Source: an uncultured Candidatus Saccharibacteria bacterium (lineage in GTDB: Bacteria; Patescibacteriota; Minisyncoccia; Phycocordibacterales; JACOZG01). Taken from it: a DNA stretch of 64,000 nucleotides. The stretch covers positions 30,644 to 94,643 of the forward strand of contig CAYICB010000001.1 in NCBI GenBank assembly GCA_964361825.1, written 5' to 3'. Of the stretch, positions 15,608 through 53,652 are shown piece after piece. The notes under the pieces were generated by a model that was not told where the DNA came from, did no database searches, and saw nothing but the letters and a program-made list of their open reading frames with translations. A program made the position numbers and the translations under genes. The first letter of the stretch is position 1, and every line of letters starts with the position of its first letter.

Positions 15608-15934
15608 ACACACAGGAAACCATCAGTGTCACTGCCCCTCGAATACTCTTAGGGCTGTATCGAATCCGGCATCGTAATGCCTTAGTCTCCCGTGCCAAGT
15701 ATCTTCGTTTTTTAACAGTTACATGCATCACTCTATCTGAAGCCATGACCGCAGATAATCTCGATGCACGGATACTGGGTTCGGTAGCGGGAAGCCGTAA
15801 CCGCCCGCATATTCACCTACTACCATTTAAATTTTAGCATAATAAAACCCCATGCCAGATTGCATGAGGTTGGAGTTTGATACGCTGTGTCTCCCGAGCG
15901 TTTGGCAATTGCTTGCCGTAGGACTAAGGTCCAA

Positions 15935-15961
15935 GGAACCAAGCGCTAGGGCTTAGGTTCC
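15935..15961 (-). promoter_or_regulatory. GC-rich stem-loop immediately 3' of the VR (candidate DGR homing hairpin)
   Basis: GGAACCAAGC-GCTAGG-GCTTAGGTTCC, about 19 nt beyond the VR end on the - strand. Confidence 0.5.
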
Positions 15962-15973
15962 AAGGTATCAGTA

Positions 15974-34250: not shown

Positions 34251-35348
34251 CTAACGATTCATGGGCATTACCAAGTAGGAGAAGGAGGGGTCGGCTGCGC
34301 CACGGAAGAGCACGGGTTTGGTTTTGCCATTAAATTTAATTACCACTTCCTGATCGCTCAAAGATTGAAACATTTCGAGCAAATAGCGAACATTGAAGCT
34401 CATTTCTATCGGTTCACCAGTAATCTCGGCACCAAGCCTTGCCGCGCTTTCCCCCACCTCACTATTTTGAGACACAATTTCGACATTTTTATTATTAGGC
34501 TGAACCTTGCAATCAATTTGGTTGAGTTTATTAGCAAAAACATTAACCAGCTTCAGATTAGCGAGCAAATCATCGCGGGTCAAAATTACTTCGGTTTTTG
34601 CCTCTTTAGGCATAATTTGTCGGTAATCAGGATAAACCCCGTCAATTAAACGCGAAATGAAGTAAAAATTATTACTCGTAATCGCTAATTGATTTTTATT
34701 AAAGTTAAGCACTACCTTATCCCCCACATTTTCAAACAAACGAATAATTTCTGACACGTTTTTTGCTGGAATAATCATTTCCAAATTGGATTTTAAACTA
34801 GGCATGATGATTTTTCGTTCAGATAGCCTAAAAGAGTCCGTGGCCACGAAAAAAAGTTGATTTTCTTCACTATACAGATAAACGCTATTAATCTCTGGCT
34901 TAATACTCGAGGTAGCCGAAGAGAAAAAAACCGACTTCAACCCCCCAACCAAGGTTTCGGCCGATATTTCCACATCCTCTGATTCGGGTTGAATTGGTAG
35001 GGAAGGAAAATCACCCACTGGTAAAGCTTTAACTAAAATTGTGTGGTAAACAGAGGAAACCAAAATATTCTCGTTCACCAACTCCAGTTTTATTTTGTCT
35101 TCTTTTAGATTATTGAGGAGTGATATCAGGGTTCCAGCTTTTATTACAACCTGGCCCTCTTTTTCGACCTTAGCGGGGATCTTAATCTCCACTCCAACAT
35201 CAAGATTAGTGGCTCTAATCACTAAAATTTCTCCCATCACTTCAAGTAGTACCCCAGAAAGCACTGGCAAAGAGAGATTTCTACCGGTTAATCTTTCAGC
35301 TAAAGTTAAAGCGTCCCGCAAAATATCTTTCTTACACTCTAATTTCAT
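34251..35348 (-). CDS. dnaN: DNA polymerase III beta sliding clamp
   Basis: Three-domain clamp, 365 aa, directly downstream of dnaA. Confidence 0.9.
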   Translation of the reverse strand: MKLECKKDILRDALTLAERLTGRNLSLPVLSGVLLEVMGEILVIRATNLDVGVEIKIPAKVEKEGQVVIKAGTLISLLNNLKEDKIKLELVNENILVSSVYHTILVKALPVGDFPSLPIQPESEDVEISAETLVGGLKSVFFSSATSSIKPEINSVYLYSEENQLFFVATDSFRLSERKIIMPSLKSNLEMIIPAKNVSEIIRLFENVGDKVVLNFNKNQLAITSNNFYFISRLIDGVYPDYRQIMPKEAKTEVILTRDDLLANLKLVNVFANKLNQIDCKVQPNNKNVEIVSQNSEVGESAARLGAEITGEPIEMSFNVRYLLEMFQSLSDQEVVIKFNGKTKPVLFRGAADPSFSYLVMPMNR

Positions 35349-37127: not shown

Positions 37128-37472
37128 ATGTTGCCAGCTAAAAATCGGCTTAACCGCGGCCAAATTAAGGAAATTATGGTTCGGGGGCGGTCTTTTTTTT
37201 CTGATCACCTTACTTTTCGTTATGCTCCATTAGGAACAGGTCAGTTGAGTGGTTTTGCCGTGGTGGTGGCCGCTAAGTGGGCCAAAAAAGCCAACGAACG
37301 AAACAAAATCAAGCGATTGATCAAGGTGGTTTTAAGAAATCTCTTGCCCCAAGTAAAAGCCGGTTGGGGTGGGGTCATTTTTTTGAAAAAAAGCGTAACC
37401 CCGGTAACATTAAGGGGTTTAGAAACTGAAGTGAAGCAATTAATTTATCAAACTCCTTTATTTTATAAATGA
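37128..37472 (+). CDS. rnpA: ribonuclease P protein component
   Basis: MLPAKNRLNRGQIKEIMVRG... Confidence 0.85.
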   Translation: MLPAKNRLNRGQIKEIMVRGRSFFSDHLTFRYAPLGTGQLSGFAVVVAAKWAKKANERNKIKRLIKVVLRNLLPQVKAGWGGVIFLKKSVTPVTLRGLETEVKQLIYQTPLFYK

Positions 37473-38221
37473 AATTTATTTATCAGCAGATTTTTTATCT
37501 CCCCCTCTACAACCTTTTGGCTTTTTTGGCCGAAATGGTGCCAACCCACAATCTTGGTCTCGCGATTATCATCTTAACTTTATTGGTTAAACTGGTCTTG
37601 TTTCCGTTTTATCATAAGACACGGAAAATTCAGCTTAAAATTAAGGCGATTGAACCAGAATTGAAGAAGATCAAACAAGAAAATGCTGGTAATAAGCAGG
37701 CCGAAGCCTTAAAAACGATGGCTTTGTACCGTGAGCACGGGATTAGCCCATTATCTGGGTTCGGTATTATGCTAATTCAGCTACCGATTTTGTTTGCTTT
37801 ATATGGTGTTTTTCGCGAAAGCTTGGCTTTTGATCCCAACCTCCTCTATTCATTTGTGTCTGCCCCAGAAACAGTTAATCATGTTTTGTTTTTCATTGAT
37901 TTAACTAAAGCCAGCTATATTTTGGCAATTTTGGCGGGAATTACCCAGTTTGTGCAAGTAAAATTAGCTTTGCCCGGTACTCCCCCCGCCGACCGCAACG
38001 GTGATGGCAAAACCACTTTTAGTGAGGATTTGGCCCGAAGCATGAATGTCCAAGCCAAATATTTTTTACCAGTAATGATCACCTTGTTTTCTCTTGGTTT
38101 ACCCGGAGCAATTTCTCTTTACTGGGTGGTTGGCAATTTATTTATGATTGCTCACGAACTCTTGGTGAAACACCGAGCTAAGGTGGCGTTTACTGCTCCC
38201 AACTTAAGCTCCACAGTGTAG
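37469..38221 (+). CDS. yidC: membrane protein insertase YidC (short form)
   Basis: Conserved TM1 with K (LLVKLVLFPF) and a 60KD_IMP core. Confidence 0.85.
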   Translation: MKFIYQQIFYLPLYNLLAFLAEMVPTHNLGLAIIILTLLVKLVLFPFYHKTRKIQLKIKAIEPELKKIKQENAGNKQAEALKTMALYREHGISPLSGFGIMLIQLPILFALYGVFRESLAFDPNLLYSFVSAPETVNHVLFFIDLTKASYILAILAGITQFVQVKLALPGTPPADRNGDGKTTFSEDLARSMNVQAKYFLPVMITLFSLGLPGAISLYWVVGNLFMIAHELLVKHRAKVAFTAPNLSSTV

Positions 38222-39392
38222 CGTCTGGCCGATTTTGGAAGATTAAACGATTTTCGGCTGGATTTAGGCTCAAACGCGAAGCATCGAGGTTGTTTTGTAA
38301 ACCAAAAACGGTAGAAGTTTCAAAAATGAGGTAGCTCTCGCCGGTGTCGGTATTGATTTGCCAAAAATTGTCTTGCCAAGCAATTTCGCCGCGGTAATAA
38401 GCATCTGGTAGCGGGAGGGGGCTTAATTTTGTTGGAACCGCACAGTAAATTAATTTAGAATCGTTCGTCCAAACACACTTTTCGGCCAAAGTTTGAATGC
38501 CCAATAAAGTGATTTCATTGGTATTTAAGTTAAGCAAACTTAGATTTAAGCCAGCCCCGTTATTGTGGCTATATACTAGCTTGGTGCCGTCTGGACTTAA
38601 GTGGCCAGTTAAGCCAAATGAACCGCCGATTAAGCGAGTGAGTTTGCCGGTGTTTGGATCTAGGTTATAGATTAAACCGGCATAATTGGCCGCCGGCTTA
38701 GTATTTAAAAGGATTGAGCTATTGGTGGGCCAAGACACTAGCCATTCGCTTACCCCAGCGCGAAAGATAACCTTTTTGTTTTCAGGTTTTTGCCAATCTA
38801 AAACTGAACCAATTGCCCCGTCCCCCACTTTCTCTAGGAGGAAAACCTTTTTTTGATCTGGAGACGAAGCGAGAGCAATTAAATTGGGTGAAATTATATT
38901 GCCCGTGCTACTAAGTAAAACTTGACCTCCCGTCTCGGGTTTAATGGCCCAAAAATCAATCGTACTGGTGGCGCCGAGGAAAAATTTAGCCTCGGTTAAG
39001 CCGGGCGCGGTGTAATTGCTTAGGCGGGTGGCCGCATTATTGAGCAAATCTTTCTCATACAAATGGCCGGTAGCTTTATCAAGATAATAAATTTTACTCG
39101 TGGTGGAGCCTTGGTTTAGCTGAAAATCACTAATAGGAGTATCGAGGAGACGATTTAAGCCTTGGCCAAAACTCTGATTGACTAAACTTTCACCAAAACC
39201 GGGCGCTAAAGACTCTTCTGCGGAAGAGTTATTTTCCCCAGTGTCGACCGGAAAGAATTCATCGATGGTGGGTAGATTTGGCGCCGGTGTGGGAGCAATT
39301 TCTCGGTTTTGATAAAGCCAGAAGCCAATTAAGCCAGCGCTTAAAGCGACAAGGATAATGATAATCGTGAGAATTTTTTTAACCGTGCTCAT
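38190..39392 (-). CDS. membrane-anchored periplasmic protein with TolB/PD40-like beta-propeller repeats
   Basis: N-terminal TM and repeats such as LSPDGTKLVYSHNNG. It is the last gene of the T4SS-like operon. Confidence 0.4.
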   Translation of the reverse strand: MSTVKKILTIIIILVALSAGLIGFWLYQNREIAPTPAPNLPTIDEFFPVDTGENNSSAEESLAPGFGESLVNQSFGQGLNRLLDTPISDFQLNQGSTTSKIYYLDKATGHLYEKDLLNNAATRLSNYTAPGLTEAKFFLGATSTIDFWAIKPETGGQVLLSSTGNIISPNLIALASSPDQKKVFLLEKVGDGAIGSVLDWQKPENKKVIFRAGVSEWLVSWPTNSSILLNTKPAANYAGLIYNLDPNTGKLTRLIGGSFGLTGHLSPDGTKLVYSHNNGAGLNLSLLNLNTNEITLLGIQTLAEKCVWTNDSKLIYCAVPTKLSPLPLPDAYYRGEIAWQDNFWQINTDTGESYLIFETSTVFGLQNNLDASRLSLNPAENRLIFQNRPDATLWSLSWEQ

Positions 39393-40462
39393 TTGGGTAA
39401 AATAAAGTTTAGATTGACCAAATTAGGATTAATTTGCTGGAGAATAAGGTAAGCCGCTAGAGCGAGGATAATCCCCTTTAAGATTTCCCATAAACGATCT
39501 TTGGCATCGGTTTTTACCCCCGGAAGAGGGTTAATGGTGTATTGCACCCCCTTCCATACAATAGTGATGATGGCAAAGAGTCCAAGGAGTCCAACGGCTT
39601 GTTTGAAAAGCGCTTTTAAATAGTCTGGTAAATTAGCGATGGGAGTGGAGCCCGTGGCGCCAATCACACCCGGTTCCAACACATTTACCCCACCCACCTC
39701 TTGGGCTAAGGCCACTGGGAGAAGTTTTGGCCAGAAAGAGAAACCATCATTACCAAATTCAATTTGGAGATCACGGGCCGCTTCTTGATTGCTAATCGCT
39801 TTGTTTTTTATCCGCAAGTTTACTGGCGCCACGCCTTCTTTGCCAGAACGATTTTGCAGGATAACCGTGCGGCCGTCTTCGGAGCTGGGGGTAGCTAATT
39901 GGTTATTGATTAGCCAAGAGAAAGCCACTTGGCCACTAGCTAAATTGGCGAGAGAAAAAAAGTATGGTTCGGCGATTAGGGAAAAGGTGTTTTCTGGCAA
40001 ATGCCAAGTGTCGGGTATGGCTAAAGCATAATTTGGTCCAAGCAAGGGTTCGGTTGGGTAAATTAGCGCTTTGGGGCTAACGAGCGATAGATTGAGAGTT
40101 TGTTTGAGCCTAGTTTCTCCGGTGGGCGTTTTGACCTCTACCGTAATAGCATTGCTACCAGTATTGCCGGCGCGGTAAATTAAACTATTTTTGCCTGTTC
40201 CGGAATTGGCGGGTAAATTGTAACCGTCTTTTTGCCAAGTGTAGATTAGGTTTTCTGGTGCCAAATTGGCAATTTGAGCTAGGGCCACCACCTTAACCTC
40301 GCTTTGGCTCGAAGGTAGGGCTTTGCCTCGATAACCTGTGGGGGTGTAAGTTCGCGCTTCCCAGAGCAGGTCGACAAAATTATTGTTTGGCGCTGACTGG
40401 GCTTGAGCGCTGGGAATGAGGGTGATGAGGCTAAACCCCAGGCTTAGAAGAAATTTTTTCAT
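39389..40462 (-). CDS. secreted protein with C-terminal double-TM hairpin (possible T4SS pilin/TrbC-like domain)
   Basis: Signal peptide MKKFLLSLGFSLITLIPSAQA and two C-terminal hydrophobic helices (GLLGLFAIITIVW, GIILALAAYLIL). Confidence 0.35.
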   Translation of the reverse strand: MKKFLLSLGFSLITLIPSAQAQSAPNNNFVDLLWEARTYTPTGYRGKALPSSQSEVKVVALAQIANLAPENLIYTWQKDGYNLPANSGTGKNSLIYRAGNTGSNAITVEVKTPTGETRLKQTLNLSLVSPKALIYPTEPLLGPNYALAIPDTWHLPENTFSLIAEPYFFSLANLASGQVAFSWLINNQLATPSSEDGRTVILQNRSGKEGVAPVNLRIKNKAISNQEAARDLQIEFGNDGFSFWPKLLPVALAQEVGGVNVLEPGVIGATGSTPIANLPDYLKALFKQAVGLLGLFAIITIVWKGVQYTINPLPGVKTDAKDRLWEILKGIILALAAYLILQQINPNLVNLNFILPK

Positions 40463-40787
40463 TTAATTTTTTTAAGGCTGGCATTCGATCTTCTAATTTT
40501 ACCATAACTATTAGACCAATAACGCCAGCCGTGATGGTGGGTAACCAGCTGACAAAGGGAATAAATTCTAAAACGGCACTGGTGGCGGCGGTGGCCAAAC
40601 GCCCGGGATGCATAAAACTGGCGCCCCGGAGGTAAAACCATAAGGAAAAAGTTAACCAAGCAAATAAACTGGAGACAAAATTGACTATTGGCACAAAACT
40701 AAGTAAATCAAAAAATAAAGCGACACTAATGAGAAAAAATCCCTGAAGCCAGTCGATGCGGGTTTTCTTTTTGGCGTTTTCGTCCAT
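40431..40787 (-). CDS. small polytopic membrane protein
   Basis: Three TM helices. Overlaps neighbouring genes. Confidence 0.4.
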   Translation of the reverse strand: MDENAKKKTRIDWLQGFFLISVALFFDLLSFVPIVNFVSSLFAWLTFSLWFYLRGASFMHPGRLATAATSAVLEFIPFVSWLPTITAGVIGLIVMVKLEDRMPALKKLNEKISSKPGV

Positions 40788-40790
40788 AAC

Positions 40791-42623
40791 TTAGGGCGTT
40801 TTGGGCTTATCTTCGGTACTAAGTTCGAGCTCTTGTTTGGCCTTTTTGATGGCGAGGAGTTGCGAGGGATCCGAGGTAATAATTTGGTCTTCGGTATAGG
40901 AGGCAATAATTTTGATCGCCACATGTTTGAGGCCGGCGAAAAAGATTCCCTCCCCCACATTACTCTCGAGAAGTAAGAATTTTTCTTCATCAGTGAGTTG
41001 GAAGGTTTGCTGAACCAGATCGATGGAGGCCGGCGACTGCTTGAGCAAGAGTTGGATGGAAGAGTTGGTGATGATTGGTAGGCCATATTCTGAACGCAAG
41101 AAATCCCCCACATCTTGTGTGATAGTGGCCACGCCGAGATAATATTTACGCCCGCGCTTAACGAGCGAGAAGAGGAAGGAGGCGGTATCGGGCGCCTTCA
41201 TCATCCACCACGCCTCATCAATCACTAGCAAGCGCTTTTTTAGATTTCGTCTGATGGAGTTCCAGATATTATGCATCACAATATACATCGCCACCGGCTT
41301 GAGCTCATCCTCCATGTCGCGCACTGAGAACACCACAAACTTTTTATTAATATCCACATTGGTGGGTTGATTGATGAAACCGGCCCAAGTGCCTTGAGTA
41401 TATTTGAGCAAGCGTTGCGCCAGCGGCGCCCCACCCTCCATGCCAGCGAGCACCAACTCCAGATCCGAGAGGAGGGGCGCTGGTTTATTACCAAAATTAG
41501 AATCGGGGGTAATATCTTTGAGGGCATAGGTTTCGGTAATCGCGGCGTCTAAAATAGCGTCCTCCTCGCTCGTGAGACCGCCGAGCATAATTCTAAAAAG
41601 GCCCACCAAATTGATGATATTAGAACGCAAAACATCGGCCGGCGACTCATCTTCTCTGGGGTAAGGCAAGTCGAAAGGGTTAATGTGGTGCTCGGAAGTG
41701 AGCGAGATATTGAAATAGCGCCCGCCAACCGCCTCGGCCAAAAATTCGTATTCTCGCTCGGGGTCAATGACGATAATGTCGGTATCAAACATCAGCGAGC
41801 GCAAAATCTCTAACTTGGTGGCATAAGATTTGCCCGAGCCCGATTTGGCAAAAATCACCGAATTGTAGTTCTCGAGGGAAAAGCGGTCGAAGAGTACGAG
41901 CGAAGAATTGTGGCGGTTAATGCCGTATAAAATACCCTTGTTGGAAGTAAGATCGAAGGAAACGAAAGGGAATAAGCTCGAGAGGGGCGAAGAGTTAAGC
42001 TTATAATTAATCTCTAACAGATCTTGAGAGACAGGCAAAACACTTTTGAAGCCCTCCGCTTGTTGAAATAGGGCGGGTTTGAGGTAAACCAGCTTGGCGT
42101 CGAGAATTGACTTGACCTCGGTCTCGGTTTTGTCGAGCTCATCCTCGGTTTCGCCATAAATGGTGATATATAGCCCGACGTCAAAGATCTTTTCCCGCGC
42201 TTGCTGGAGGGAGTCGCGTAGACTCTCGATATCTTCGTAAGCGGTATCAAGAATGGGGTCGCGCACCATCCCCTTACCCTCCTTGATACTGATTTGGCTT
42301 TGGACTTCGGCCACCTTTTTCTCTAATTGCTTGAGGGCGATTGAAGTATCAATGGGGTGGATGAGAATAGAAACATCAAAGATTTTGTCCAGATTGATAA
42401 CGGGCGAGAACCAATCACCGGCCAAAAATCGGGGGTAAGAAATTACGAAAAAGGTGCGCGCCAGCTTATCGCCCAAATTGAGGACTCGGGGCGTAATCTT
42501 AAGCGCCGAAGGCGCAATAATATCGCGGAGCTCCAGCACGCCCAATTCATAAATATCTTTGGGTAAAACGGGTGATAAACCCACTTTTTCCTCGGTTTTT
42601 TTGCCAAAATTAAATAAAGCCAT
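40791..42623 (-). CDS. VirB4/TrbE/PrgJ-family T4SS ATPase, C-terminal (ATPase) part
   Basis: Walker A FAKSGSGKSY and Walker B LLVIDEAWWMM. Confidence 0.8.
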   Translation of the reverse strand: MALFNFGKKTEEKVGLSPVLPKDIYELGVLELRDIIAPSALKITPRVLNLGDKLARTFFVISYPRFLAGDWFSPVINLDKIFDVSILIHPIDTSIALKQLEKKVAEVQSQISIKEGKGMVRDPILDTAYEDIESLRDSLQQAREKIFDVGLYITIYGETEDELDKTETEVKSILDAKLVYLKPALFQQAEGFKSVLPVSQDLLEINYKLNSSPLSSLFPFVSFDLTSNKGILYGINRHNSSLVLFDRFSLENYNSVIFAKSGSGKSYATKLEILRSLMFDTDIIVIDPEREYEFLAEAVGGRYFNISLTSEHHINPFDLPYPREDESPADVLRSNIINLVGLFRIMLGGLTSEEDAILDAAITETYALKDITPDSNFGNKPAPLLSDLELVLAGMEGGAPLAQRLLKYTQGTWAGFINQPTNVDINKKFVVFSVRDMEDELKPVAMYIVMHNIWNSIRRNLKKRLLVIDEAWWMMKAPDTASFLFSLVKRGRKYYLGVATITQDVGDFLRSEYGLPIITNSSIQLLLKQSPASIDLVQQTFQLTDEEKFLLLESNVGEGIFFAGLKHVAIKIIASYTEDQIITSDPSQLLAIKKAKQELELSTEDKPKTP

Positions 42624-42625
42624 AA

Positions 42626-43261
42626 TTAATTGCCACTGGGCATTGAGGCCTCACCCGGATTAAAAATTTTGAAATAAAGCTCCACTAACTCCTCGGTGCC
42701 GAGAGGGATAGCGCGGATGCCAAAACGCCCTAAACCTTGTACTACCACCCCAGCGCGTTGCTCTAGCTGGGTGCGTCGCTCGAGGAAGAGGTCTTGCTCG
42801 GCGGTGGCAGTTTTGGGCTGGCGACCGGGCAAGAAGGAAGCCAGAAAGCCTTTTTTGGTGACATCCACAATAGGTGGATCATAAGGCACCACTACAAAAA
42901 AGGTTTTGGTCATCACATCGGTGGTGAGGGTAAAGTTTTTGATAAAATCGATGTATTCTCTGGTTTGGATTTGGAGTAATTCATTGGTTTGCTCTTTAGC
43001 CCGATCTTGAAGGGTCATTAAATAGGGCTTAATATCGAGCTTGCGCGATTGGATAAAGAGCTGAATTTGGAAGTCGAGCGAATTTAAGAAGTTTTGATAT
43101 TGGAGAATGGTCGCCTCCTTCTCGTCCTCACTTTTTAAGGCAAAGTTGAGAGCCGAAGCGATAAGAACGAGGCGGAGAGAATTATTTTTGAGCACCACTA
43201 CCCCGTCGCGGATCTCGCGAATGGGGACAAAATCTTGCGTGGGCTCGGCAACTTTGGCCAT
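42626..43261 (-). CDS. VirB4-family N-terminal domain encoded as a separate ORF
   Basis: VPIREIRDGVVVLKNNSLRLVLIASALNFALKSEDEKEATILQYQNFLNSLDFQIQ resembles the VirB4/TraC N-terminus. It ends TAA-TT-ATG, 2 nt before the ATPase ORF. Confidence 0.5.
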   Translation of the reverse strand: MAKVAEPTQDFVPIREIRDGVVVLKNNSLRLVLIASALNFALKSEDEKEATILQYQNFLNSLDFQIQLFIQSRKLDIKPYLMTLQDRAKEQTNELLQIQTREYIDFIKNFTLTTDVMTKTFFVVVPYDPPIVDVTKKGFLASFLPGRQPKTATAEQDLFLERRTQLEQRAGVVVQGLGRFGIRAIPLGTEELVELYFKIFNPGEASMPSGN

Positions 43262-43280
43262 GCCAATTATTATACCGCGT

Positions 43281-43688
43281 TTATTGGATTTTTTCTCTCA
43301 CATCGAGACTCCAAGAGAGGTCGCGCAACCGACTTTGGGATAATTTGGGAATCTTGAAGCCGGTCGCTCCCTCGCTCCCGAGGACAATCTTTTTCCCCAC
43401 GGCCGTTTTCTCCTTGCGCTTCCAGATATACAGCTTTTTGGTAAACAGGTAACGGAAAGCGGCTTCGGTAACCTTAATAAACGGCTGATTATTAACTTTA
43501 TAAAAAGCGAGGAGGAGGCCGAAGGCCACGATAGCGAGAATCAGGGGCCAAGCGATGAGGCGAGGCAAATAGGTGTAGAAGATAAAGGCGCCACCGAGTG
43601 AGCCAGCAATATACACAAATTGCTTGAAGGTCAGCGGACCGAAAATCTTGTCTTCAATCTCAATAAATTGTGGGACTTGGAAGTTCAT
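43281..43688 (-). CDS. PrgI/VirB3-like small membrane protein
   Basis: VPQFIEIEDKIFGPLTFKQFVYIAG followed by two TM helices, directly upstream of VirB4. Confidence 0.5.
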   Translation of the reverse strand: MNFQVPQFIEIEDKIFGPLTFKQFVYIAGSLGGAFIFYTYLPRLIAWPLILAIVAFGLLLAFYKVNNQPFIKVTEAAFRYLFTKKLYIWKRKEKTAVGKKIVLGSEGATGFKIPKLSQSRLRDLSWSLDVREKIQ

Positions 43689-43738
43689 GTTAGAAGGTTA
43701 AAAGGCAAAAATCAAAAGGCAAAAATTTAAGTTAAAAT

Positions 43739-43978
43739 TCAAAATTTTTGACCCTTCAATTTTAACACACCAGCCGCTAACATGTTGGCCAACTCGCGCA
43801 CCTCGACGATTAAGGGGTTCACTTTTTCGCCCAAAACTAATCCCGCATCTCTTAGTAAATTTAACCAGTAAACAGTTTCATTGGCGCTTTTTAGCGAAAT
43901 TTCGTAAAATTTTTTGAATTCTAACCGGGAGCATCTTTCTTTGAGATCACTTTTGGCTTTTGAATTGTAATTTTGCAT
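43739..43978 (-). CDS. four-helix-bundle protein (TIGR02436 / Avd superfamily), 5'-truncated
   Basis: 79 aa matching only the C-terminal half of the family (ETVYWLNLLRDAGL...). Confidence 0.45.
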   Translation of the reverse strand: MQNYNSKAKSDLKERCSRLEFKKFYEISLKSANETVYWLNLLRDAGLVLGEKVNPLIVEVRELANMLAAGVLKLKGQKF

Positions 43979-44024
43979 TTTGACCTTTGACTTTTGAGTT
44001 GGTCAAAGCGCCACTGACAAAAGC

Positions 44025-44540
44025 CTACTTGGCCGGCTCTCGATACGGGTCCGTGGTCGCGGGGCTCGCTTGGGGTGGAATTGGCGCTTGGGTGGCGAGA
44101 TGATCAAGATCGACCTCCTCGCGCGGCACGCGGAAGAGTTTGCTCATTTTCTCATTGAAGATGGTGGCCGAAGCCGGCGCCTTGAGCGGTTGACTAACCG
44201 AGCTCGGCTCGCTGGGCGTAGTGCTGTGGACCTTCTGCAGGGATTCCCGAATCTTGAGAAAAATCTCTTGATTAACTTCAGTCACTATCGCTTTTATCTC
44301 TTCACCACTAATCCCCGGTAAGGCCTTGATTAATCCCTGTTCGTAACTCGCTACAGGGTTAATTCCGATTAAAACGAGGGCCGTTTGATCGGCCAGCTCG
44401 CCAATTTGGTCTAAGTGGAGTTTGTGGTTCAAACCAATTTCCCCTATTGCGCCATCGAGATCAAGATCCCAAATCGCCGCCTTAATATCCTCGGGTAAAC
44501 CCATAAACTTTTTTGCTAATTGTTCGCTATTGTGTTCCAT
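44025..44540 (-). CDS. hypothetical protein
   Basis: 171 aa with a Pro/Ser-rich C-terminus. Confidence 0.4.
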   Translation of the reverse strand: MEHNSEQLAKKFMGLPEDIKAAIWDLDLDGAIGEIGLNHKLHLDQIGELADQTALVLIGINPVASYEQGLIKALPGISGEEIKAIVTEVNQEIFLKIRESLQKVHSTTPSEPSSVSQPLKAPASATIFNEKMSKLFRVPREEVDLDHLATQAPIPPQASPATTDPYREPAK

Positions 44541-44543
44541 AAA

Positions 44544-46820
44544 TTATTTTTTGTCCTCTTTTTTCTCCCCCTCATCTTTTTTGTCTTCTTTCTTGTCCTC
44601 ATCTTTGTCGAGATTGAGTTCTCGGGCCATGCGATTTACTACTGTGAATGCACTATCCAATTCTTTTTCTTCATCAGGTGAGAGAGTGCCCGCTTTTTCT
44701 TTTGATTCAAGACGGCGAACAGTTTCCATTGCCTTGTCGAATTTCTTTTCGTTGCTCTTTTTTCTGGCGTCTTTATCAACCGATTTTTGTCGGTTTTTTT
44801 CAATCTCTTCCTGTTGGCTGGCCGATAATCTAGATTTGAATTCTTCCACAACCTTGCTAAGATGCCGATATTCTTTTTCGGCTACGCCTTTTGTTTTCTC
44901 GTCTTTTGGTGCCTTGGTTCGCGCCTCTTCTAGCTTCATCATTTCAAATACTGCTTTACGATACTTTCTCATGCTTGATTCGTTTTCTGTTTTTAGACGA
45001 TCGGTTTCAGGTGTATTGGCATACCAATTAAGAATGTCAGTATGTTTGCGGGTAGCGTCTTGAATTTCTTGCCACAACTGATCTTGAGTTTTAATCCCTG
45101 TTTGGGCCTTGTTGAGTGCGGCCTCCATTTTTGCTTGATTTACAGCTCCAAGTTGGCGATATGCTTGTTGTTGAATATAGTTACCTAATAATGGTTTTAC
45201 TCCCAAGAAGCCTTTGCCAGCAGCTTCGATGTATTTTGCTTTAGATTCCTCGGTCTTCAGTTCTTTGGGTGGTTTGGACATTTTTTCTGTTACTTCCTTA
45301 AAACTTTCTTTGCCACCAAACATGGCCTTTGTTCCCTTTTCGGCCAAGGGTTTAAACAAGTTGGCTAAACGAGGACTGGTAGTCATCATGCGGGTAATCC
45401 AGCCACCTTTATCATCCTTGTTTCGTGTTTCTTCTGCGCGAATTGCTTCTGCGCTCCAGCGACCAATGGTGGCACGGCCAATTGCAGATGGAACATAAAT
45501 TCCAGCCCCTTTTGCTGCTCCGATTCCCCAATCCTTCATTTTTTTCCCATACCCCACTACGGTGTTGGCGCCGAAGGCGCTAAGTTTAACCGCTGCAATT
45601 AGCGAGCCGATCATTAGGCCAACCACAATGGCAAAATTGAAGATGAGACCGAGCCAGTTGCTCTCTTTGTTTTCTGATAATCGCTTAATGATTCCCGTGT
45701 CGAGGATGGTGATTGAGGAATAGATGAACAATATATATATTGGAGCAAAGAATGATTGGTTCAGGAGTTTGTCCCACCAATCTTTAAAGTATTTTTCCAT
45801 GTTAGGCATAGCCCGTGCGAGGAAAGCCAGAGGAGAGATTACAATCAAAAAGACTAAGTAAACCGAACGAATAAGCAAGAGAACTGCCCCGGCTAAAAGC
45901 GTAAAACTAATAACTAAGCCAAGAACCACATTGCCGAAAATCCTAATCAAGACTTCTATTGGACTACCGTCCTTAAGGGTAAACATCTCTGTAGTAAAAT
46001 CAGAGTTTCGGAGAAAAGTTCCGGCTACCCCCTTTTGGGCTATGGGTTCATAAAGCTGGGCCGCGGCGATATTGGCCACATCAATTACGGCACGGGCCAA
46101 AAAGGCACTAAAATTGATAAACAGAGCACTAATAATTACAGTGATAATAATCCTTTCTTTATTATTGACCTTAAGATCAAGAATGAAGGCGGCGGCCACA
46201 TAGAGAAGAATAAAAATAAAGAACAGGTTGGCAAAATCTCGCAAAGTAGACCACGCTAGAGTTACTCCCGGGTCATTTACAAAGGTTCCAATTTTTTTAA
46301 CCCCAAAATCCAAAGAATAACCAAAAACCCCACCGGCAACTTTTACAATCCCGGCGGTAATTAGTGTCAACACTTCTCCAATAATGCCGAGGATTAAGTG
46401 AAAACCTCGTGTCACACAGGCCGTAAGATTTGTTAGACCACAGTTGTCTTCGTCTTCTGACGCACTTTTGATATCCTCATCTAGGGTTTTACCGTCATTT
46501 TTTGTTTTACTTGTTAGACTAGCAAGTTCGGCTTCTAGTTCCGACCGTCTTTCGTTAGAAAGGGTTGATGGCAACGCGTTGAGCTGTCTTTCAATGTCTT
46601 CTTTGCGATGTATGTCTCGCCAAATAGCCTTTTCCCTTTTATATAAAACGTTATATTCATCCTCAGTAATTTCTCCCTGGTTAAATTTTTCTGTCAGTAT
46701 GTTCAAGGCCTCACTTTCGGTTGATTGAGAAAAGGTTTGTTTAATATCAAATACTGGAAAAATCGAAATTATTATAACCAAAAGTATTCCTAGGGTTATT
46801 TTTTTCCAGTTTTTCATCAT
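44544..46820 (-). CDS. polytopic membrane protein, VirB6/TrbL/PrgH-like, with charged coiled-coil C-terminal tail
   Basis: About 8 TM helices in the central region and a Lys/Glu-rich C-terminus. Confidence 0.45.
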   Translation of the reverse strand: MMKNWKKITLGILLVIIISIFPVFDIKQTFSQSTESEALNILTEKFNQGEITEDEYNVLYKREKAIWRDIHRKEDIERQLNALPSTLSNERRSELEAELASLTSKTKNDGKTLDEDIKSASEDEDNCGLTNLTACVTRGFHLILGIIGEVLTLITAGIVKVAGGVFGYSLDFGVKKIGTFVNDPGVTLAWSTLRDFANLFFIFILLYVAAAFILDLKVNNKERIIITVIISALFINFSAFLARAVIDVANIAAAQLYEPIAQKGVAGTFLRNSDFTTEMFTLKDGSPIEVLIRIFGNVVLGLVISFTLLAGAVLLLIRSVYLVFLIVISPLAFLARAMPNMEKYFKDWWDKLLNQSFFAPIYILFIYSSITILDTGIIKRLSENKESNWLGLIFNFAIVVGLMIGSLIAAVKLSAFGANTVVGYGKKMKDWGIGAAKGAGIYVPSAIGRATIGRWSAEAIRAEETRNKDDKGGWITRMMTTSPRLANLFKPLAEKGTKAMFGGKESFKEVTEKMSKPPKELKTEESKAKYIEAAGKGFLGVKPLLGNYIQQQAYRQLGAVNQAKMEAALNKAQTGIKTQDQLWQEIQDATRKHTDILNWYANTPETDRLKTENESSMRKYRKAVFEMMKLEEARTKAPKDEKTKGVAEKEYRHLSKVVEEFKSRLSASQQEEIEKNRQKSVDKDARKKSNEKKFDKAMETVRRLESKEKAGTLSPDEEKELDSAFTVVNRMARELNLDKDEDKKEDKKDEGEKKEDKK

Positions 46821-49800
46821 CGTGTGATTGTGATTTCTCGGGTGATTTCTTGATTATTGCCCGCTAAGCACTTGATGCCATAAGCGAGTTTAGGAGTCAC
46901 GGAGATAAAGGCGGAGGTATTGGTGGTGCCGTAGATAAAGTCATACCGCCGCAGGGCTCGACCCAGTTCCGAGTCGGCGGTTTTGGTGGCCTCAATTTTA
47001 TCACGCAAGAGCTCGACAATTTTAGCCTTGGTGCGCTCGGGGTTAGTATTTTCGCCACCGGCGAGCAAAGTGGTATCACCTCCTAGGCCACCAAAGGTAA
47101 TTTGATAACTAGCATCCTCGCTAAGACTGCCGCTTGGGGTATAGGTCCAGCGCTCGGCCAAGAGATTGGGTAGCGCGGTTTTAAGCGAGAAGAGGAGGTC
47201 GGTATCCTCATTTACTAAGCGCTCAATCTTTAGGCTGGCGGTGAGGGGGTGAGCAATGGTGTGACTTCCATTTAGTTCTACCTCATCACCCTTGGCCACT
47301 AGCACCTCATTTACCGAGAGCCAATCATTATTAGCCTGGCAATAATTCGCATTGGCGGAGTTCCAAGCCAGATTAGAGAGATTTGGTGTTCCCCCACTTA
47401 CTGCCGCGAGGTTGGGAGTATTGAAGCCAAATTCGAGGCCAATTCTTGCCAAGACTGGGCCCGTAATTGGATTGTCGATCAAATCATCTAAACCAACAGT
47501 ATTTAAGGTGTTGAAGCTCGTATTATCGTAGTAATTATAGGTTCCCGAGCTCAAATTTGGTGGAGTGCGGGGTGTTGTGGGATCATCGCTAGTAATTGGG
47601 ATCGCGCCGCCAAGCGAGGGCGGTAAATTATTTCTCGACACAGGTAAATTACTGTCAAAAGCTTGCCGGGGTTGCGGGTCAGAGAGGCGGGGGCAAGGTC
47701 CAGTGCCCGGGCAAGGATTCGGAGTCTGGAAAACACTTTTATAATCACCGGGGCTGGCAATCGCGGCGCCTAGATTAGCGGTTTTCTGGATAGAATTATT
47801 GAGATCAAATTTGGCGGCATCCTCTTTTAGCCCCTTAGCATTAAGGGTTTGATCTACGGGCAAGGTGGCCAATTTGCTAGCTTGGTCGCGGATCACTGAG
47901 GGCGGAGTGGTAATGGTCCAACCATCGCAAGTCCAAGTGCCATTGGGGAGCTGAATTTTATTTGCCTCCGGGCAGGTTCTGGTGCCCAAATTACCATCAC
48001 CCCAAGCGGCTTGTTGCATAATGCTTCCGGCGGCGGCACTTCTTTCTTCGGCCACAATTCGATCTAATTCCACCGCCGCGAGTAGGGGGTTAAGCCCTTT
48101 GTGAGCCATAAAGTTATAATTTGCTTCCGGGTCGAAGGCGCTTTTGCCATCCAGACTCCCGGTTTCTTTAAAGTTTTTTATTTGTTCTGGGGTATAAGGT
48201 GAGGCGAAGATATTTTGATTTTGTTCTGCATCTCTGGCGGCTAAGGCTTGGCTCAAAGCGGGGTAAAGCGCCGGATTCTCGGCCACCGAGTTTCTAAATT
48301 TTTGGACCACGGCCGCCTCTCGTTCGTCTGCTGCCTCGGCCGCCAGCTTTTCGGGGTCAGAAACAATCAAGGGTTGAGTGTTTTCTTCTCCAAGGGTCGG
48401 TACGCTGGTGGTAAAAGAGGAGGTTTCGAGACCGGTTTGCAGGAGATCGGCCATTTGATCTTGCCAAATTGCTAAAGCGCGACCCGATTCCATAATCGCA
48501 TTGGGATCATTAACGAAGGTTTTTTCTTCCATCACAAAGAGCATTCTTCTTACCGCCTTCACATGGGTACAGGCTTGGAGCTCAAGTAAGACCAGTTTTT
48601 CCATCATCGCTTTAATTTCGGCCGTGTTTTTAACAATTTCTCCGGTATTTTTTTGCGTTCCTTGACTAACAGAAAGGAGAGATCCAGCCTCATTAACTGG
48701 CACGGTTAAGGCACCAGCGCCGCCAAGGCCAAAGCGATTCATCACTTCTTCCATGGCGCGTTTGGTGAGGTCGGTAACAATAGCTTGAGCCATGGGATTG
48801 CCCTCAAACATTGAGCCGGCCAAACCACCAATGACCCCCACGGCACTACCAGCCAAACCTTTAGCCAAATTACTAGAAAAATTGGTTAAACCAGCGGCGG
48901 CGCCATTCTTAGCAACATTATTGGTAATCACATTTTCGGTCACAGCTGGTGCGGCCGCAGTTACCTCTTGACCAGTGGTTTCGGCAAAGAAGGCCGATTC
49001 GTCTAAGGCTGGCGTGGGAGTATTGGGGTCAATATTATTAACATAGGCATCGTAATGGATTTCTCCCGGTCCGCGGATGGCATCATTGGGAATAATACGG
49101 ATATCATTGGCTTCGGAAACCTTCACTTGATTTGGCAGGAGTGGGCCATAGGTATCATCCGCCACCACCTCTACTCTAGGTGGAGGGAAAACGGCATCGT
49201 GTAAAGAGAAGCCAACTTTGTTGATTCCATCAGCGATAAAATTACCGGCGGCGAAAGCATTATTGGTAACACCCGCGGCAAAGGGGTAAAGAGTGGCGCC
49301 CACGGTGTCATCAATACTTTTGGCGATGCTATCTCCCACATGGTCAATAATAATGGTGGTGGGAGTAGTGATGGCGGCGATGGCCACATTTAGCTGGAGA
49401 TCAACGGCATTTACAATCGGGTTAAGAAATTGCTCATCCATGGTATTGATGGCCTTCTCCACCGCTCCGAGTGGTCCCACTAGATGGTCCATCGCCTTAT
49501 CGATTGAGTTTTCTAGAGAATTATTGATTGGTTTTTCGATGGCATTCGCAATGGCGTCGGCCAGCTTAGAGATATTTTTGGGATCAGTCATTGACTGCTC
49601 CAGTTGGAAAGCAAAACCATTAACCAACTCATCGGTGATTGCCTCTCTATTGGTTGTTAAGTAGGCGGCCCATTTGAAAAACTCAATTGTTTCTTCGGCT
49701 TGCGCTTTTAAATTCTCAATCATCCCTAAGATTTCCTCGCCAGTTTCTGGGAGAGAGGCTAGACCGAGAACCGTGCCGATGATCTGATTTAGAAAATCAG

Positions 49801-50713
49801 GTACGAAGGGAATATTGGCCGAAGAGAAAGATAGCCCCACATTTTGAATTGAGGCCTTAATCCCATCAATCGTGGCCCTGAAGGTAGCCACCAAGGTTTC
49901 CACCTGATCCACTGCCATTTGGGGGATTTCTAGTAAAACGGTGTTTATCTCGGCTCTATAGTAGGTTTCGATGGTAGGTTTAGCGATTTCGTGGAAGTTT
50001 AACTTTAGATTCTCTTGGAGATTATCTCGCAAGCCATGATTAACTGATTCGGAAACCTTCTTTTTGATAAATTCTTCATTTAAAACGCGGGGCCATGACT
50101 CTCTGACGGAATCGGTTACTAATTGACGAAATTGACCACGATCCCTAAGCATTTCTTCGGTCACTCCTTGCTCGCGGAAGGCTTGGAGCTTTTCGGCCAA
50201 GGTTTTTGGTACTTCTTCTTTAAGCCTTTCGGTCATACCAGTCTGGATTCCCTGACGCAAATGCCCCTCGATTGCCGGGGCCGCGCTAGTGGTTACAGCA
50301 TTAACCGTTTTTGGCATCACTTCCATTCCCACCGCTTCATTAATAAGGTTTTTAATCGGTTTTTTGAAGGCGGTTTCTGCCACTGCTTGACCATAGGTGG
50401 CTGGTTTTTTGCCCTTCACCTCTATTTCGCACTGTTTTTGATCCTCTTCGCGCCAAGCGCCCAAAATTTCTTGAGCGCTTGAGGAGTCACCGGCTTTTTG
50501 GGGTGGACGAAGCAAGTTTTTGGTGTCCAGTTCGCCGATATTTGGGGTGGGGGTAGTTTGTCCCAAAACTGAAGCCCGAGTGCGTAGTCCACCTGAATTA
50601 GGTAAACCAGCAAATTGGGCTGAAGCGCTAAGCGGAGAGAGCAAGTTGGCGGTAAGCAGGCTTAAAATTAAGCCTCGAACCAAGTAGTTTTTTGTTTGAG
50701 GATTTAATTTCAT
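46817..50713 (-). CDS. giant secreted protein (1298 aa) of the T4SS-like operon
   Basis: Signal peptide MKLNPQTKNYLVRGLILSLLTANLLSPLSASA and no recognisable catalytic motifs. Confidence 0.55.
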   Translation of the reverse strand: MKLNPQTKNYLVRGLILSLLTANLLSPLSASAQFAGLPNSGGLRTRASVLGQTTPTPNIGELDTKNLLRPPQKAGDSSSAQEILGAWREEDQKQCEIEVKGKKPATYGQAVAETAFKKPIKNLINEAVGMEVMPKTVNAVTTSAAPAIEGHLRQGIQTGMTERLKEEVPKTLAEKLQAFREQGVTEEMLRDRGQFRQLVTDSVRESWPRVLNEEFIKKKVSESVNHGLRDNLQENLKLNFHEIAKPTIETYYRAEINTVLLEIPQMAVDQVETLVATFRATIDGIKASIQNVGLSFSSANIPFVPDFLNQIIGTVLGLASLPETGEEILGMIENLKAQAEETIEFFKWAAYLTTNREAITDELVNGFAFQLEQSMTDPKNISKLADAIANAIEKPINNSLENSIDKAMDHLVGPLGAVEKAINTMDEQFLNPIVNAVDLQLNVAIAAITTPTTIIIDHVGDSIAKSIDDTVGATLYPFAAGVTNNAFAAGNFIADGINKVGFSLHDAVFPPPRVEVVADDTYGPLLPNQVKVSEANDIRIIPNDAIRGPGEIHYDAYVNNIDPNTPTPALDESAFFAETTGQEVTAAAPAVTENVITNNVAKNGAAAGLTNFSSNLAKGLAGSAVGVIGGLAGSMFEGNPMAQAIVTDLTKRAMEEVMNRFGLGGAGALTVPVNEAGSLLSVSQGTQKNTGEIVKNTAEIKAMMEKLVLLELQACTHVKAVRRMLFVMEEKTFVNDPNAIMESGRALAIWQDQMADLLQTGLETSSFTTSVPTLGEENTQPLIVSDPEKLAAEAADEREAAVVQKFRNSVAENPALYPALSQALAARDAEQNQNIFASPYTPEQIKNFKETGSLDGKSAFDPEANYNFMAHKGLNPLLAAVELDRIVAEERSAAAGSIMQQAAWGDGNLGTRTCPEANKIQLPNGTWTCDGWTITTPPSVIRDQASKLATLPVDQTLNAKGLKEDAAKFDLNNSIQKTANLGAAIASPGDYKSVFQTPNPCPGTGPCPRLSDPQPRQAFDSNLPVSRNNLPPSLGGAIPITSDDPTTPRTPPNLSSGTYNYYDNTSFNTLNTVGLDDLIDNPITGPVLARIGLEFGFNTPNLAAVSGGTPNLSNLAWNSANANYCQANNDWLSVNEVLVAKGDEVELNGSHTIAHPLTASLKIERLVNEDTDLLFSLKTALPNLLAERWTYTPSGSLSEDASYQITFGGLGGDTTLLAGGENTNPERTKAKIVELLRDKIEATKTADSELGRALRRYDFIYGTTNTSAFISVTPKLAYGIKCLAGNNQEITREITITR

Positions 50714-51573
50714 AAGCCTAAAGAGAGATTGGCCCCTTCGTTTTCATTAAACACCAGACCATTGGCCATCAAAAAGAAGTTTAAATTATTGATGGCCGTA
50801 AAAAATCCTTCTAATTTTGTGGGGTGGAGTTCGGCGGCGGCCAAGGCAATGGCAGGTTCACTTTCTATTTGGGCCATAAGCAGAGAGTTTTGCGTTAGGT
50901 TGGTGATGGCATTTACCAAATTAAGATGATTTTGGGCGGCGGTTTGAGGAATGGCGAGGTTGAGTAGAGTCTGTGAGGTGTTTTTGTAAGCCGTAACGCG
51001 CTCTTCTAGTTTAGTTAAAGTTTGATTTTCGCCGTTTTCAATGAAGTTTAGAGCCAGAACAAGCTCATTTTCTTCGCCGGTTGGCCAAGATTGACGCATA
51101 ATCTCGGCTACTTCTAAGCCGTAAGCTCTAATTTGTGGTTGGGTGGCGGAAGAAAGGAGGTGTAAATCACTAATTTGGTAGGTAGTTTGTTTGGGCCAAA
51201 AAACCTCGGAGTTGATTAATGGGGCTTCTCTGTTTTGCGAAGCCTCATGAACTTGGGCTAAAAGCTTGGCATTAACTTCTAGCGGCTGATTGGTTGATTG
51301 GCTCGGATCTCGTCCTAAGCTCACTTCGGCCCCATCTGCCACCCCGTCACCATCGGAATCTGGTTTATTAGGATTAGTGCCCCAGAGGGTTTCTTCCCAG
51401 TCTGCCAATTTGTCTTGATCTTGATCGGTGGGTTTAAATTTAGCGAGGGGCGGAACTTTTTTGGTCATCAGGAAATTGTTTTCTAGTTTTGGCGCGGAGC
51501 GGCCACCAATAAACCACAGCGACCAAACACTGATCACTACCATTAGCCCTAGCCCCACCACGAGCTTCTTCAT
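50710..51573 (-). CDS. hypothetical membrane-anchored protein
   Basis: N-terminal TM helix. It is the first gene of the operon and overlaps the next by 4 bp. Confidence 0.45.
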   Translation of the reverse strand: MKKLVVGLGLMVVISVWSLWFIGGRSAPKLENNFLMTKKVPPLAKFKPTDQDQDKLADWEETLWGTNPNKPDSDGDGVADGAEVSLGRDPSQSTNQPLEVNAKLLAQVHEASQNREAPLINSEVFWPKQTTYQISDLHLLSSATQPQIRAYGLEVAEIMRQSWPTGEENELVLALNFIENGENQTLTKLEERVTAYKNTSQTLLNLAIPQTAAQNHLNLVNAITNLTQNSLLMAQIESEPAIALAAAELHPTKLEGFFTAINNLNFFLMANGLVFNENEGANLSLGL

Positions 51574-51605
51574 TTGGCTTAAATTATATTACATTTCTTG
51601 TTAAG

Positions 51606-52073
51606 ATGGGAGCAATGTTATCAACCTTACTGTTGATTAGTCAGTTGCTCGAGCAAATTAAGGCTAAAGAGACCATTTATCCCTCGATTTTTGATCGAGT
51701 AAAAGCCGATCGCGAGATCAGGGAGAAGCTTGTGGTTCAAGAATCAGTCCTTACGCCACCTGTAATTATTGAAGTGACGCCCAAAAAAGGGGGGGCTGGC
51801 ACCGGAATTACCTTGCGGGGGCAAAATTTTGCTAAAGATAACCTTGTTTATACTGGTTTTGGCACAGTGAAGGCCAAATCTGTTGACGGGAAAACCCTTA
51901 AATTCAAATTGCCAAAACCACCCTTTTGGTCTTCTGCCCAAAATCAAGCGGCGGTAACAGAGTATTGGCGAAAGACTTACCCCAATGGCAAGGTGAGTAT
52001 CCCTTTGGGTTTTTACCTTAAAAATGACCTTGGCCAAAGCGTGGCTCCCGGAACCTTTACCTTTGAATTTTAA
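51606..52073 (+). CDS. hypothetical protein (IPT/TIG-like segment)
   Basis: PVIIEVTPKKGGAGTGITLRGQNF. Confidence 0.35.
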   Translation: MGAMLSTLLLISQLLEQIKAKETIYPSIFDRVKADREIREKLVVQESVLTPPVIIEVTPKKGGAGTGITLRGQNFAKDNLVYTGFGTVKAKSVDGKTLKFKLPKPPFWSSAQNQAAVTEYWRKTYPNGKVSIPLGFYLKNDLGQSVAPGTFTFEF

Positions 52074-52433: not shown

Positions 52434-52839
52434 CCTGATCGCCGATTTTTAGATTGTTTTTTTCCGAGAAACCGGCATTTACTTCTAAGACATATTTCAC
52501 CGGCGAGGGTGGAAAGAAAAGTTGCGGATAAGTTTCGGGGGCGAGATTTTTTTCGATGCCGATAATTTTCCAATTTTCGTCGAGCCAAATAATGTCGATT
52601 GGGAAGAACATATCTTTCATCCAAAAATTTGGGGTAGTGACGGTGGGGAAAATAAAAAGTAAGCCAGTGTCTTGGGCGAGGTTTGTTCTGTCAGACAAAC
52701 CTTGAGTTCTTTCTATTTCAGTATCGGCGATTTCGATTTGAATAATTTTTCCGCCAATTTCTAATTGTGGTAGTGAAACCTTGGGTGCGGGGTTAATAAA
52801 ACCAAGAGCGATTAAGATCGTGAGAAAAAATTGTTTCAT
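52423..52839 (-). CDS. DUF192 domain protein
   Basis: Signal peptide plus a GLSDR...GLLFIFP...FWMKDMFFPIDIIWLD pattern. Confidence 0.6.
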   Translation of the reverse strand: MKQFFLTILIALGFINPAPKVSLPQLEIGGKIIQIEIADTEIERTQGLSDRTNLAQDTGLLFIFPTVTTPNFWMKDMFFPIDIIWLDENWKIIGIEKNLAPETYPQLFFPPSPVKYVLEVNAGFSEKNNLKIGDQVKN

Positions 52840-53612: not shown

Positions 53613-53652
53613 GTGTGAAACATTGTAAAATAAGGCTAAAATGTGAAACAAA

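Follow-up and report, generated by a model that had tools for sequence, protein, structure and literature searches.

A VirB4 ATPase encoded as a TrsD-like protein and a short ATPase in the dnaA-adjacent type IV secretion cluster of a Patescibacteria genome

Does a virB4 gene that is found in two pieces encode a genuine two-subunit ATPase, or is it a broken gene? The question is raised by a stretch of 64,000 nucleotides (hereafter, the window) from an uncultured Candidatus Saccharibacteria bacterium (GenBank assembly GCA_964361825.1, contig CAYICB010000001.1), in which a type IV secretion system (T4SS) cluster carries, on the minus strand, an open reading frame (ORF) of 211 aa followed by another of 610 aa. 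A first reading of the letters, made without database searches (the sequence-only reading), described the pair as a VirB4 split into two ORFs in different frames, joined by TAA-TT-ATG, and left three options: a two-subunit VirB4, a recent pseudogenisation or an assembly error. Its description was accurate in coordinates and lengths. The junction reads GGC AAT TAA TT ATG GCT on the minus strand, and the 610-aa ORF lies in the +2/-1 frame relative to the 211-aa ORF. Its remark that the combined length, about 821 aa, is that of a normal VirB4 also agrees with the 823 aa of TrwK/VirB4 and the 831 aa of a fused relative from Bacillus mycoides. We consider it likely that the two ORFs constitute an intact, fixed two-gene VirB4 in the chromosomal, dnaA-adjacent T4SS of a Paceibacteria-type genome, the small protein completing the VirB4 N-terminal domain (NTD) in trans. 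The split itself is real, ordinary and already known, as "TrsD + short VirB4", from Patescibacteria and some Gram-positive plasmids.

The evidence that the split is genuine comes from independent assemblies and from relatives. The same 211-aa protein and an identical 71-nt junction region were found in four independently assembled contigs from different samples (NCBI metagenome-assembled genome (MAG) GCA_038061915.1, Logan ERR3858116, ENA ERZ1292617 and ENA ERZ1292626), one of which represents a strain that is 2.5% divergent (97.5% nt identity) elsewhere. An assembly or sequencing error, in which an indel of 1-2 bp made an artificial split and for which the frame difference alone would speak, is refuted by this base-for-base identity and by the same architecture in thousands of homologues, and its chances are practically nil. 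For the relatives, the small protein was scanned against one genome per GTDB species, which returned 30 loci, all of them in Patescibacteria MAGs. The ATPase gene directly follows the small gene in 28 of the 30, always as separate ORFs that have a stop and an ATG of their own. The spacers between the ORFs range from -4 to +356 nt and, with the window counted, measure at most 9 nt in 21 of 29 pairs; on the same count, the frames 0, 1 and 2 of the gene pair occur 9, 11 and 9 times. L037, the closest relative for which DNA was available (about 87-88% identical in aa), has an in-frame spacer of 6 nt, against 2 nt here, and the spacer of three relatives contains hairpins or what is left of a four-helix-bundle gene that is unrelated.

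Both halves also have the marks of maintained proteins. The best 120 homologues of the 211-aa protein are 208-235 aa long, and the best 120 homologues of the ATPase are all of 589-625 aa. Against the closest relative, Nei-Gojobori dN/dS was 0.09 (small gene), 0.027 (ATPase gene) and 0.073 (neighbouring PrgI gene); these ratios are rough because dS is high (1.1-1.7), but they are still clearly far under 1, and both ORFs are under strong purifying selection. The small protein diverges faster than the ATPase, with 33-70% identity across the species-level loci compared with 46-91%. A recent frameshift or nonsense mutation that broke a single-chain virB4 would explain two frames that sum to a normal VirB4 length, and a few relatives are indeed fused; however, the 28 relatives with both genes are all split, with variable spacers and frames and down to 33% identity, the homologues of both halves are uniformly short, both genes are constrained, and many homologues of the small protein have long disordered tails of their own, which marks an independent protein. 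Pseudogenisation is thus refuted, and we give it hardly any weight. Comparison of orthologous virB4 genes, which the sequence-only reading had proposed as a check, therefore showed a conserved split, and its option of a genuine two-subunit VirB4 is supported by the junction, by the separate genes in relatives and by selection.

Programmed recoding, by a -1 frameshift or by read-through of the stop, would be another way to obtain a single-chain VirB4 from this locus. The ATPase frame is open for just 27 nt 5' of its ATG, which at position 42623 is the earliest start codon there, and a -1 shift in the final nine codons of the 211-aa ORF would join it to the ATPase. Yet no slippery heptamer was found, on reading the sequence, in the 27 nt preceding the stop of the 211-aa ORF, and each ATPase ORF retains an ATG of its own as well as a conserved N-terminal peptide. 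Since the frame is distributed almost evenly among relatives and the spacers, some with inserted elements, extend to 356 nt, a single recoding mechanism could not be conserved, and we regard this explanation as very improbable.

How the second cistron is translated bears on a further claim of the sequence-only reading, namely that TAA-TT-ATG is the arrangement typical of translational coupling. Shine-Dalgarno motifs are about as frequent in the window as chance predicts (4 of 56 genes), and the neighbouring genes of the T4SS cluster are tightly packed (2-4 nt of overlap or gap); TAA-TT-ATG is therefore ordinary operon packing with no distinctive signal. For the same reason a Shine-Dalgarno site in the 3' end of the small gene is uninformative on coupling. 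Coupling is plausible here, given the 2-nt spacer and the lack of a Shine-Dalgarno motif, but it is neither special nor conserved. Because the ATPase starts 2 nt past the stop and the genome makes no use of Shine-Dalgarno sites, translation of the ATPase cistron would probably proceed through termination-reinitiation or a comparable, closely coupled mode, which would supply the subunits in matched amounts.

The 610-aa protein is readily recognized. It passes the curated cut-off of the NCBIfam family NF045971 conju_CD1110 (360 bits, cut-off 325; profile positions 185-733 of 752), matches Pfam P-loop_TraG (90.4 bits, cut-off 25.8) and has both Walker A and Walker B, as expected of a VirB4/TraC ATPase. 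Its residues 227-584 align with the structure of a VirB4 C-terminal domain (CTD; 4AG5, E 2.9e-41), its residues 126-550 with TrwK 300-735, and its residues 116-198 match positions 292-373 of the PF11130 TraC_F_IV profile. It does not contain a complete NTD of about 400 aa in one polypeptide: its coverage begins at position 185 of CD1110 and at residue 300 of TrwK, and the absent first half of the NTD is the neighbouring 211-aa protein. As the alignments to 4AG5 and TrwK show that about 225 residues of the second half of the NTD are retained, the split lies inside the NTD. On these matches, the 610-aa protein is a VirB4-family T4SS ATPase that comprises the second half of the NTD and the CTD. 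The sequence-only reading was imprecise in this detail: the longer ORF is more than the ATPase part.

The small protein is harder to place. Three NCBIfam profiles match it, all well short of their curated cut-offs: VirB4_plasma weakly at profile positions 102-233 of 894, CD1110 weakly at its N-terminal positions 2-102 of 752, and TrsD/TraD (NF041427) at residues 9-125 of the protein, profile 16-142 of 201, with E 3.7e-4. The Pfam family PF26593 TraC-like is a precomputed match for P0001, whose sequence is the same, and for 119 of the best 120 homologues; a Pfam scan of the 211-aa protein itself, a lax threshold included, gave nothing relevant, with a library copy that did not hold PF26593. No transmembrane segments are predicted, and the protein appears soluble. 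It is a small soluble protein encoded between a VirB3-like gene and virB4, as TrsD is on the staphylococcal plasmid pSK41. From its profile matches and its place, the 211-aa protein is a remote relative of TrsD, outside the narrow staphylococcal family. The 211-aa gene encodes the first half of the VirB4 NTD as a free polypeptide, of the TrsD or "TraC-like" PF26593 family. We also considered that the two halves of the NTD might be paralogous duplicates, and rejected the idea: hhalign of the small-protein family against residues 1-226 of the ATPase family gave a probability of 1%.

A profile search of 1.84 billion cluster representatives (50% identity) retrieved 3,359 relatives of the small module at E <= 1e-3; 148 of the best 150 of these representatives are stand-alone proteins and two are fused to the ATPase part. 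The longer stand-alone relatives, of up to 443 aa, have low-complexity tails rich in Pro, Gln, Ser and Thr at either end. Apparently disordered extensions of about 60-230 aa, rich in Pro, Gln, Ser, Thr and Ala and either N- or C-terminal, were observed in P0161, P0166, P0181, P0206, P0232, P0242, P0260, P0264 and P0265.

Structure prediction places the small protein with VirB4. Its AF2 (AlphaFold2) model has an alpha/beta fold with a predicted local distance difference test (pLDDT) of 77. In a Foldseek search of the PDB the best 14 matches of this model are all R388 TrwK/VirB4 chains (probability 0.99-1.00, E 1e-4 to 3e-2, TMq 0.40-0.50), and the next matches have a probability of at most 0.25. 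A naturally fused relative from Candidatus Colwellbacteria (P0199) was modelled with a mixed alignment: the N module, residues 11-207, is confident, the next 32 residues have pLDDT below 50, and the remainder follows. In these models the break point would be a disordered, flexible linker between two independently folding modules.

Natural joins and splits of the same modules show where the chain is cut. Plasmids were searched by tblastn with the small protein, which revealed three architectures; the parts were placed with a hidden Markov model (HMM) of the 120 Patescibacteria homologues and by phmmer with the ATPase. Fused forms comprise the B. mycoides protein of 831 aa, with the small module at residues 22-197 and the ATPase part at 218-827, and an 858-aa VirB4 of Myxococcus (pYRE), in which the module occupies residues 21-209, within the PF11130 TraC_F_IV match at 44-398; the family HMM recognizes the two modules with E values of 6e-16 and 3e-14, respectively. 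Split pairs are TrsD and TraE of pSK41 (227 + 672 aa), the pair of Pontibacillus (274 + 621 aa) and that of Bacillus thuringiensis Bt407 (328 + 661 aa); the small proteins of Pontibacillus and Bt407 have an additional N-terminal transmembrane helix. In the third architecture, on an Embleya sp. plasmid (NZ_CP108778.1, L034 3614-4663), a single 349-aa protein joins PrgI (14-101) to a TrsD-like module (136-243) and is followed by an XF1762-family gene and then a 643-aa VirB4-like ATPase; this fusion is a Rosetta-stone link of VirB3 to the VirB4 N-terminal module. Single chains of module and ATPase also exist within Patescibacteria, with 797 aa (L038 544-2937) and 898 aa (P0269). The 797-aa form adjoins PrgI and dnaA and is present in three separate Ca. 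Colwellbacteria MAGs (GCA_964615945.1 among them), so the fusion is genuine. The split ATPases start at homologous positions, residue 51 of the window protein corresponding to residue 53 of TraE, 21 to 20 of Pontibacillus and 23 to 31 of Bt407. As judged from these alignments, the break is inside the VirB4 NTD, at the same place as in pSK41 TrsD/TraE.

The arrangement has been described before. In a survey of 3,035 genomes of Patescibacteria, Quinonero-Coronel et al. (2025, Microb Genom, PMC12102498) found 2,272 homologues with the CONJScan TrsD HMM, 1,664 of them associated with virB4. TrsD is reported as the commonest T4SS component in the group. TrsD is described there as a remote homologue of the VirB4 N-terminus with no function assigned, known outside Patescibacteria from the pGO1 subclass of MPF_FATA only. 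The Patescibacteria systems have PrgI/VirB3, VirB6 and VirB2-like genes and no relaxases, and lie beside dnaA, dnaN and ksgA (PMC12102498). The string "TrsD" does not occur in the main text of Guglielmini et al. 2014 (PMC4027160), and we take the statement of homology via PMC12102498; the literature on Helicobacter pylori ComB, the pELF plasmid and pIP501 TraF had no bearing on a split VirB4. The window has PrgI/VirB3 and TrsD adjoining VirB4, no relaxase or type IV coupling protein (T4CP) among the ORFs of the cluster, a gene nearby with a weak pilin-like match, and dnaA, dnaN and ksgA close by. Because the locus, which is from the same phylum, shows the features of the published pair, the split in the window is an instance of it; nothing substantive differs, except that the paper treats TrsD as accessory and does not discuss the position of the break in VirB4. 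The option of two subunits in the sequence-only reading thus stands, while neither the TrsD/PF26593 family nor the published arrangement had been recognized in it.

Other systems resemble the locus in part. The pGO1/pSK41 plasmids (MPF_FATA, pGO1 subclass) match the locus in gene order, roughly in protein size (VirB3-like protein 135 aa, TrsD 227 aa, ATPase 672 aa) and in the homologous ATPase start, but pSK41, a conjugative plasmid, has a relaxase and a coupling protein, whereas the cluster in the window is chromosomal and origin-proximal and neither was found in it. The single-chain VirB4/TraC proteins (TrwK of R388, CD1110, B. mycoides, Myxococcus pYRE and Colwellbacteria) are tiled collinearly by the two ORFs, at equal total length, but are one polypeptide, where the chain in the window is cut inside the NTD at the modelled disordered linker. 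Fusions of VirB3 to VirB4 are known from some Gram-negative systems (PMC12102498); together with the PrgI-TrsD protein of Embleya they show VirB3, the VirB4 N-module and the ATPase joined or separated in various ways, and the window has three separate proteins.

What would the small protein do? VirB4 NTDs join protomers, embed in the membrane and contact VirB3 and VirB8, anchoring the ATPase ring; virB3 usually adjoins virB4, and PrgI is predicted to bind the VirB4 of pCF10 at 1:1 (PMC12857230). The 211-aa protein would bind the ATPase in trans and so rebuild the full VirB4 NTD. Since this domain in R388 touches VirB3 and VirB8 and holds the VirB4 ring at the membrane, the small protein may be a membrane-proximal adaptor that bridges PrgI/VirB3 and the ATPase hexamer.

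Several observations weigh against this picture. The small protein scores 20.4 bits on the TrsD/TraD profile, far under the cut-off of 200, and BLASTP found no similarity between it and pSK41 TrsD, the small proteins being too diverged, which distinguishes the window from pSK41/pGO1. No PDB chain was matched by the 211-aa protein in phmmer or by the profile of its 51-sequence family, so the link to TrwK rests on a moderate similarity of fold. The model of the fused P0199 has pLDDT 66 and a predicted TM-score (pTM) of 0.46, and superposes on full-length TrwK over about 800-860 columns with TM 0.27 and a root-mean-square deviation of about 23 A; these single-chain models support collinearity with TrwK, and the global arrangement of domains in the fused model is unreliable. 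Binding of the 211-aa and 610-aa proteins to each other is a prediction, and coupled translation of the ATPase cistron is plausible on its spacing. Finally, two of the 30 relatives (L024 and L025) have PrgI and the small gene, but the 4 kb on either side contain no ATPase gene. With the TrsD homologues of Gracilibacteria, which do not adjoin virB4 (PMC12102498), they indicate that the small protein may act without an adjacent ATPase gene.

The last point bears on an explanation in which the 211-aa protein, although derived from VirB4, is no longer part of the ATPase and acts, for example, with no partner but PrgI, or in assembly or regulation. Besides these loci and the lack of an assigned function for TrsD, a roughly 2-3 times faster evolution of the small protein than of the ATPase and the long disordered tails of many homologues would fit such a separate role. 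Against it stand the natural fusions of module and ATPase in Colwellbacteria, Bacillus and Myxococcus, the near-universal adjacency of the two genes, which argues for one functional unit, and the short ATPase itself, which would be left without a part of the NTD that is present in all full-length VirB4 proteins. We consider a separate role unlikely, and favour a small protein that completes the NTD of the ATPase. In the two Paceibacteria loci without an ATPase gene (L024 3509-8028 and L025), the order is PrgI, the TrsD-like gene, a 364-aa ORF without known family and a 739-aa pilin-like/SLT protein.

The surroundings of the gene pair (Table 1) are those of an origin-proximal T4SS cluster. The PrgI gene lies immediately 5' of the 211-aa gene and resembles in size and place the TraC of pSK41 (135 aa, with a weak PrgI match); the order PrgI, small gene, ATPase was seen in the window, in the relatives checked (L037-L039 and L041; PrgI and small gene only in L024/L025) and in pSK41. 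The candidate VirB6-like protein of 758 aa had no significant Pfam match, and residues 282-342 of the 357-aa protein weakly match PF18895 T4SS_pilin (23.6 bits, cut-off 26.6). Pfam and NCBIfam scans of the 11 ORFs at 38190-51573 gave no match to a T4CP or relaxase family.

Table 1. Features of the VirB4 gene pair and its neighbourhood, in window coordinates.
Feature	Position	Strand	Basis or remark
211-aa ORF, TrsD-like	42626..43261	minus	ATG start, TAA stop
610-aa ORF, "short" VirB4-family ATPase	40791..42623	minus	ATG start
Junction TAA-TT-ATG	42621..42628	minus	stop 42628-42626, spacer 42625-42624, start 42623-42621
VirB4 NTD second half (610-aa residues 1-226)	41946..42623	minus	PF11130 and TrwK alignments
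Walker A GSGKS, residues 262-266	41826..41840	minus	read in translation
Walker B region VIDEAW, residues 467-472	41208..41225	minus	read in translation
TATAAT hexamer, ends 7 nt 5' of the ATG of the 211-aa gene	43269..43274	minus	putative leaderless promoter
PrgI family (VirB3-like), 135 aa, two transmembrane segments (~residues 36-65)	43281..43688	minus	Pfam PrgI 43.7 bits, cut-off 27
758-aa polytopic membrane protein, candidate VirB6-like subunit	44544..46820	minus	~6-8 hydrophobic segments
357-aa secreted protein, two C-terminal transmembrane segments	39389..40462	minus	hydropathy
dnaA	35554..36996	minus	Pfam; origin-proximal context
dnaN	34251-35348		Pfam
yidC	37469-38221		Pfam
ksgA	52836-53651		Pfam

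A TAnAAT motif ends 6-9 nt 5' of the start codon in 8 of the 56 window genes, where 0.75 would be expected; these include the TrsD-like gene, the first gene of the upstream T4SS block (50710-51573) and the gene at 53653-55563. This placement suggests frequent leaderless mRNAs, as far as can be read from motif positions. A scan for sigma-70 promoters and terminators over 38000-52000 gave counts at or under shuffle expectation and was uninformative on transcription units.

Other features of the window were noted in passing. The upstream T4SS block includes a 1,298-aa protein (46817-50713, minus strand) with a hydrophobic, signal-peptide-like N-terminus and no family match. A "23S rRNA intervening sequence" four-helix-bundle gene (43739-43978, minus strand, 79 aa) lies between the T4SS genes; it matches just the C-terminal half of its profile, and the ORF is 124 aa long in the 97.5%-identical strain (L041 372-746). 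In another relative (L007, 4640-5005), the 356 nt that separate the TrsD-like gene from virB4 are taken up by a remnant of a four-helix-bundle gene and inverted repeats. These four-helix-bundle genes look like small mobile or decaying insertions. A complete diversity-generating retroelement is found at 14084-16693 (minus strand), with an RVT_1 reverse transcriptase (14084-15067), a template repeat (15485-15607) and a variable repeat (15990-16112), the last located 3'-terminally in an ORF of 239 aa (15974-16693). The template and variable copies, 123 nt each, share 89% identity, and at all 14 mismatches the template has A (minus strand) where the variable copy has another base, the signature of adenine mutagenesis. 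A T2SSE ATPase of the PilB/GspE type, with an MshEN domain (25413-27113, plus strand, 394 bits), lies about 13 kb away from the T4SS cluster and points to a type IV pilus or a type II secretion system component.

The domain analysis presented here is an incremental refinement of published work and no discovery. Relative to the literature consulted, its refinements are the NTD break at a predicted linker, the break point shared with pSK41, the rare re-fusions in Patescibacteria and the fusion of PrgI to the module in Actinomycetota. For annotation, an ORF of about 210 aa followed by a "DUF87/VirB4" ORF of about 610 aa in Patescibacteria or pGO1-type elements is two genuine genes and no frameshifted pseudogene. 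One may further speculate, though we would not expect the idea to hold, that the free TrsD-like module is a detachable adaptor that times the docking of the ATPase ring or sets its stoichiometry and recruits substrates, and that the shared break point marks the donor lineage of the T4SS. If so, a module tethered to PrgI/VirB3 and equipped with disordered tails could recruit substrates in T4SSs that have no coupling protein and no relaxase, and the break point, common to Bacillales megaplasmids and plasmids of the pGO1/pSK41 type, would, as a rare genomic event, identify the donor lineage of the Patescibacteria T4SS. Southlakia epibionticum, the one Patescibacterium tested, cannot live as an epibiont without its T4SS, and its TrsD homologue is listed as essential (PMC12102498). 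The NTD break at a linker, the pSK41-like start of the ATPase, the fusions to ATPase and to PrgI and the transmembrane helix of the Bacillales proteins together lead to a testable hypothesis, that TrsD would supply in trans the part of VirB4 that binds VirB3 and provides the membrane anchor.

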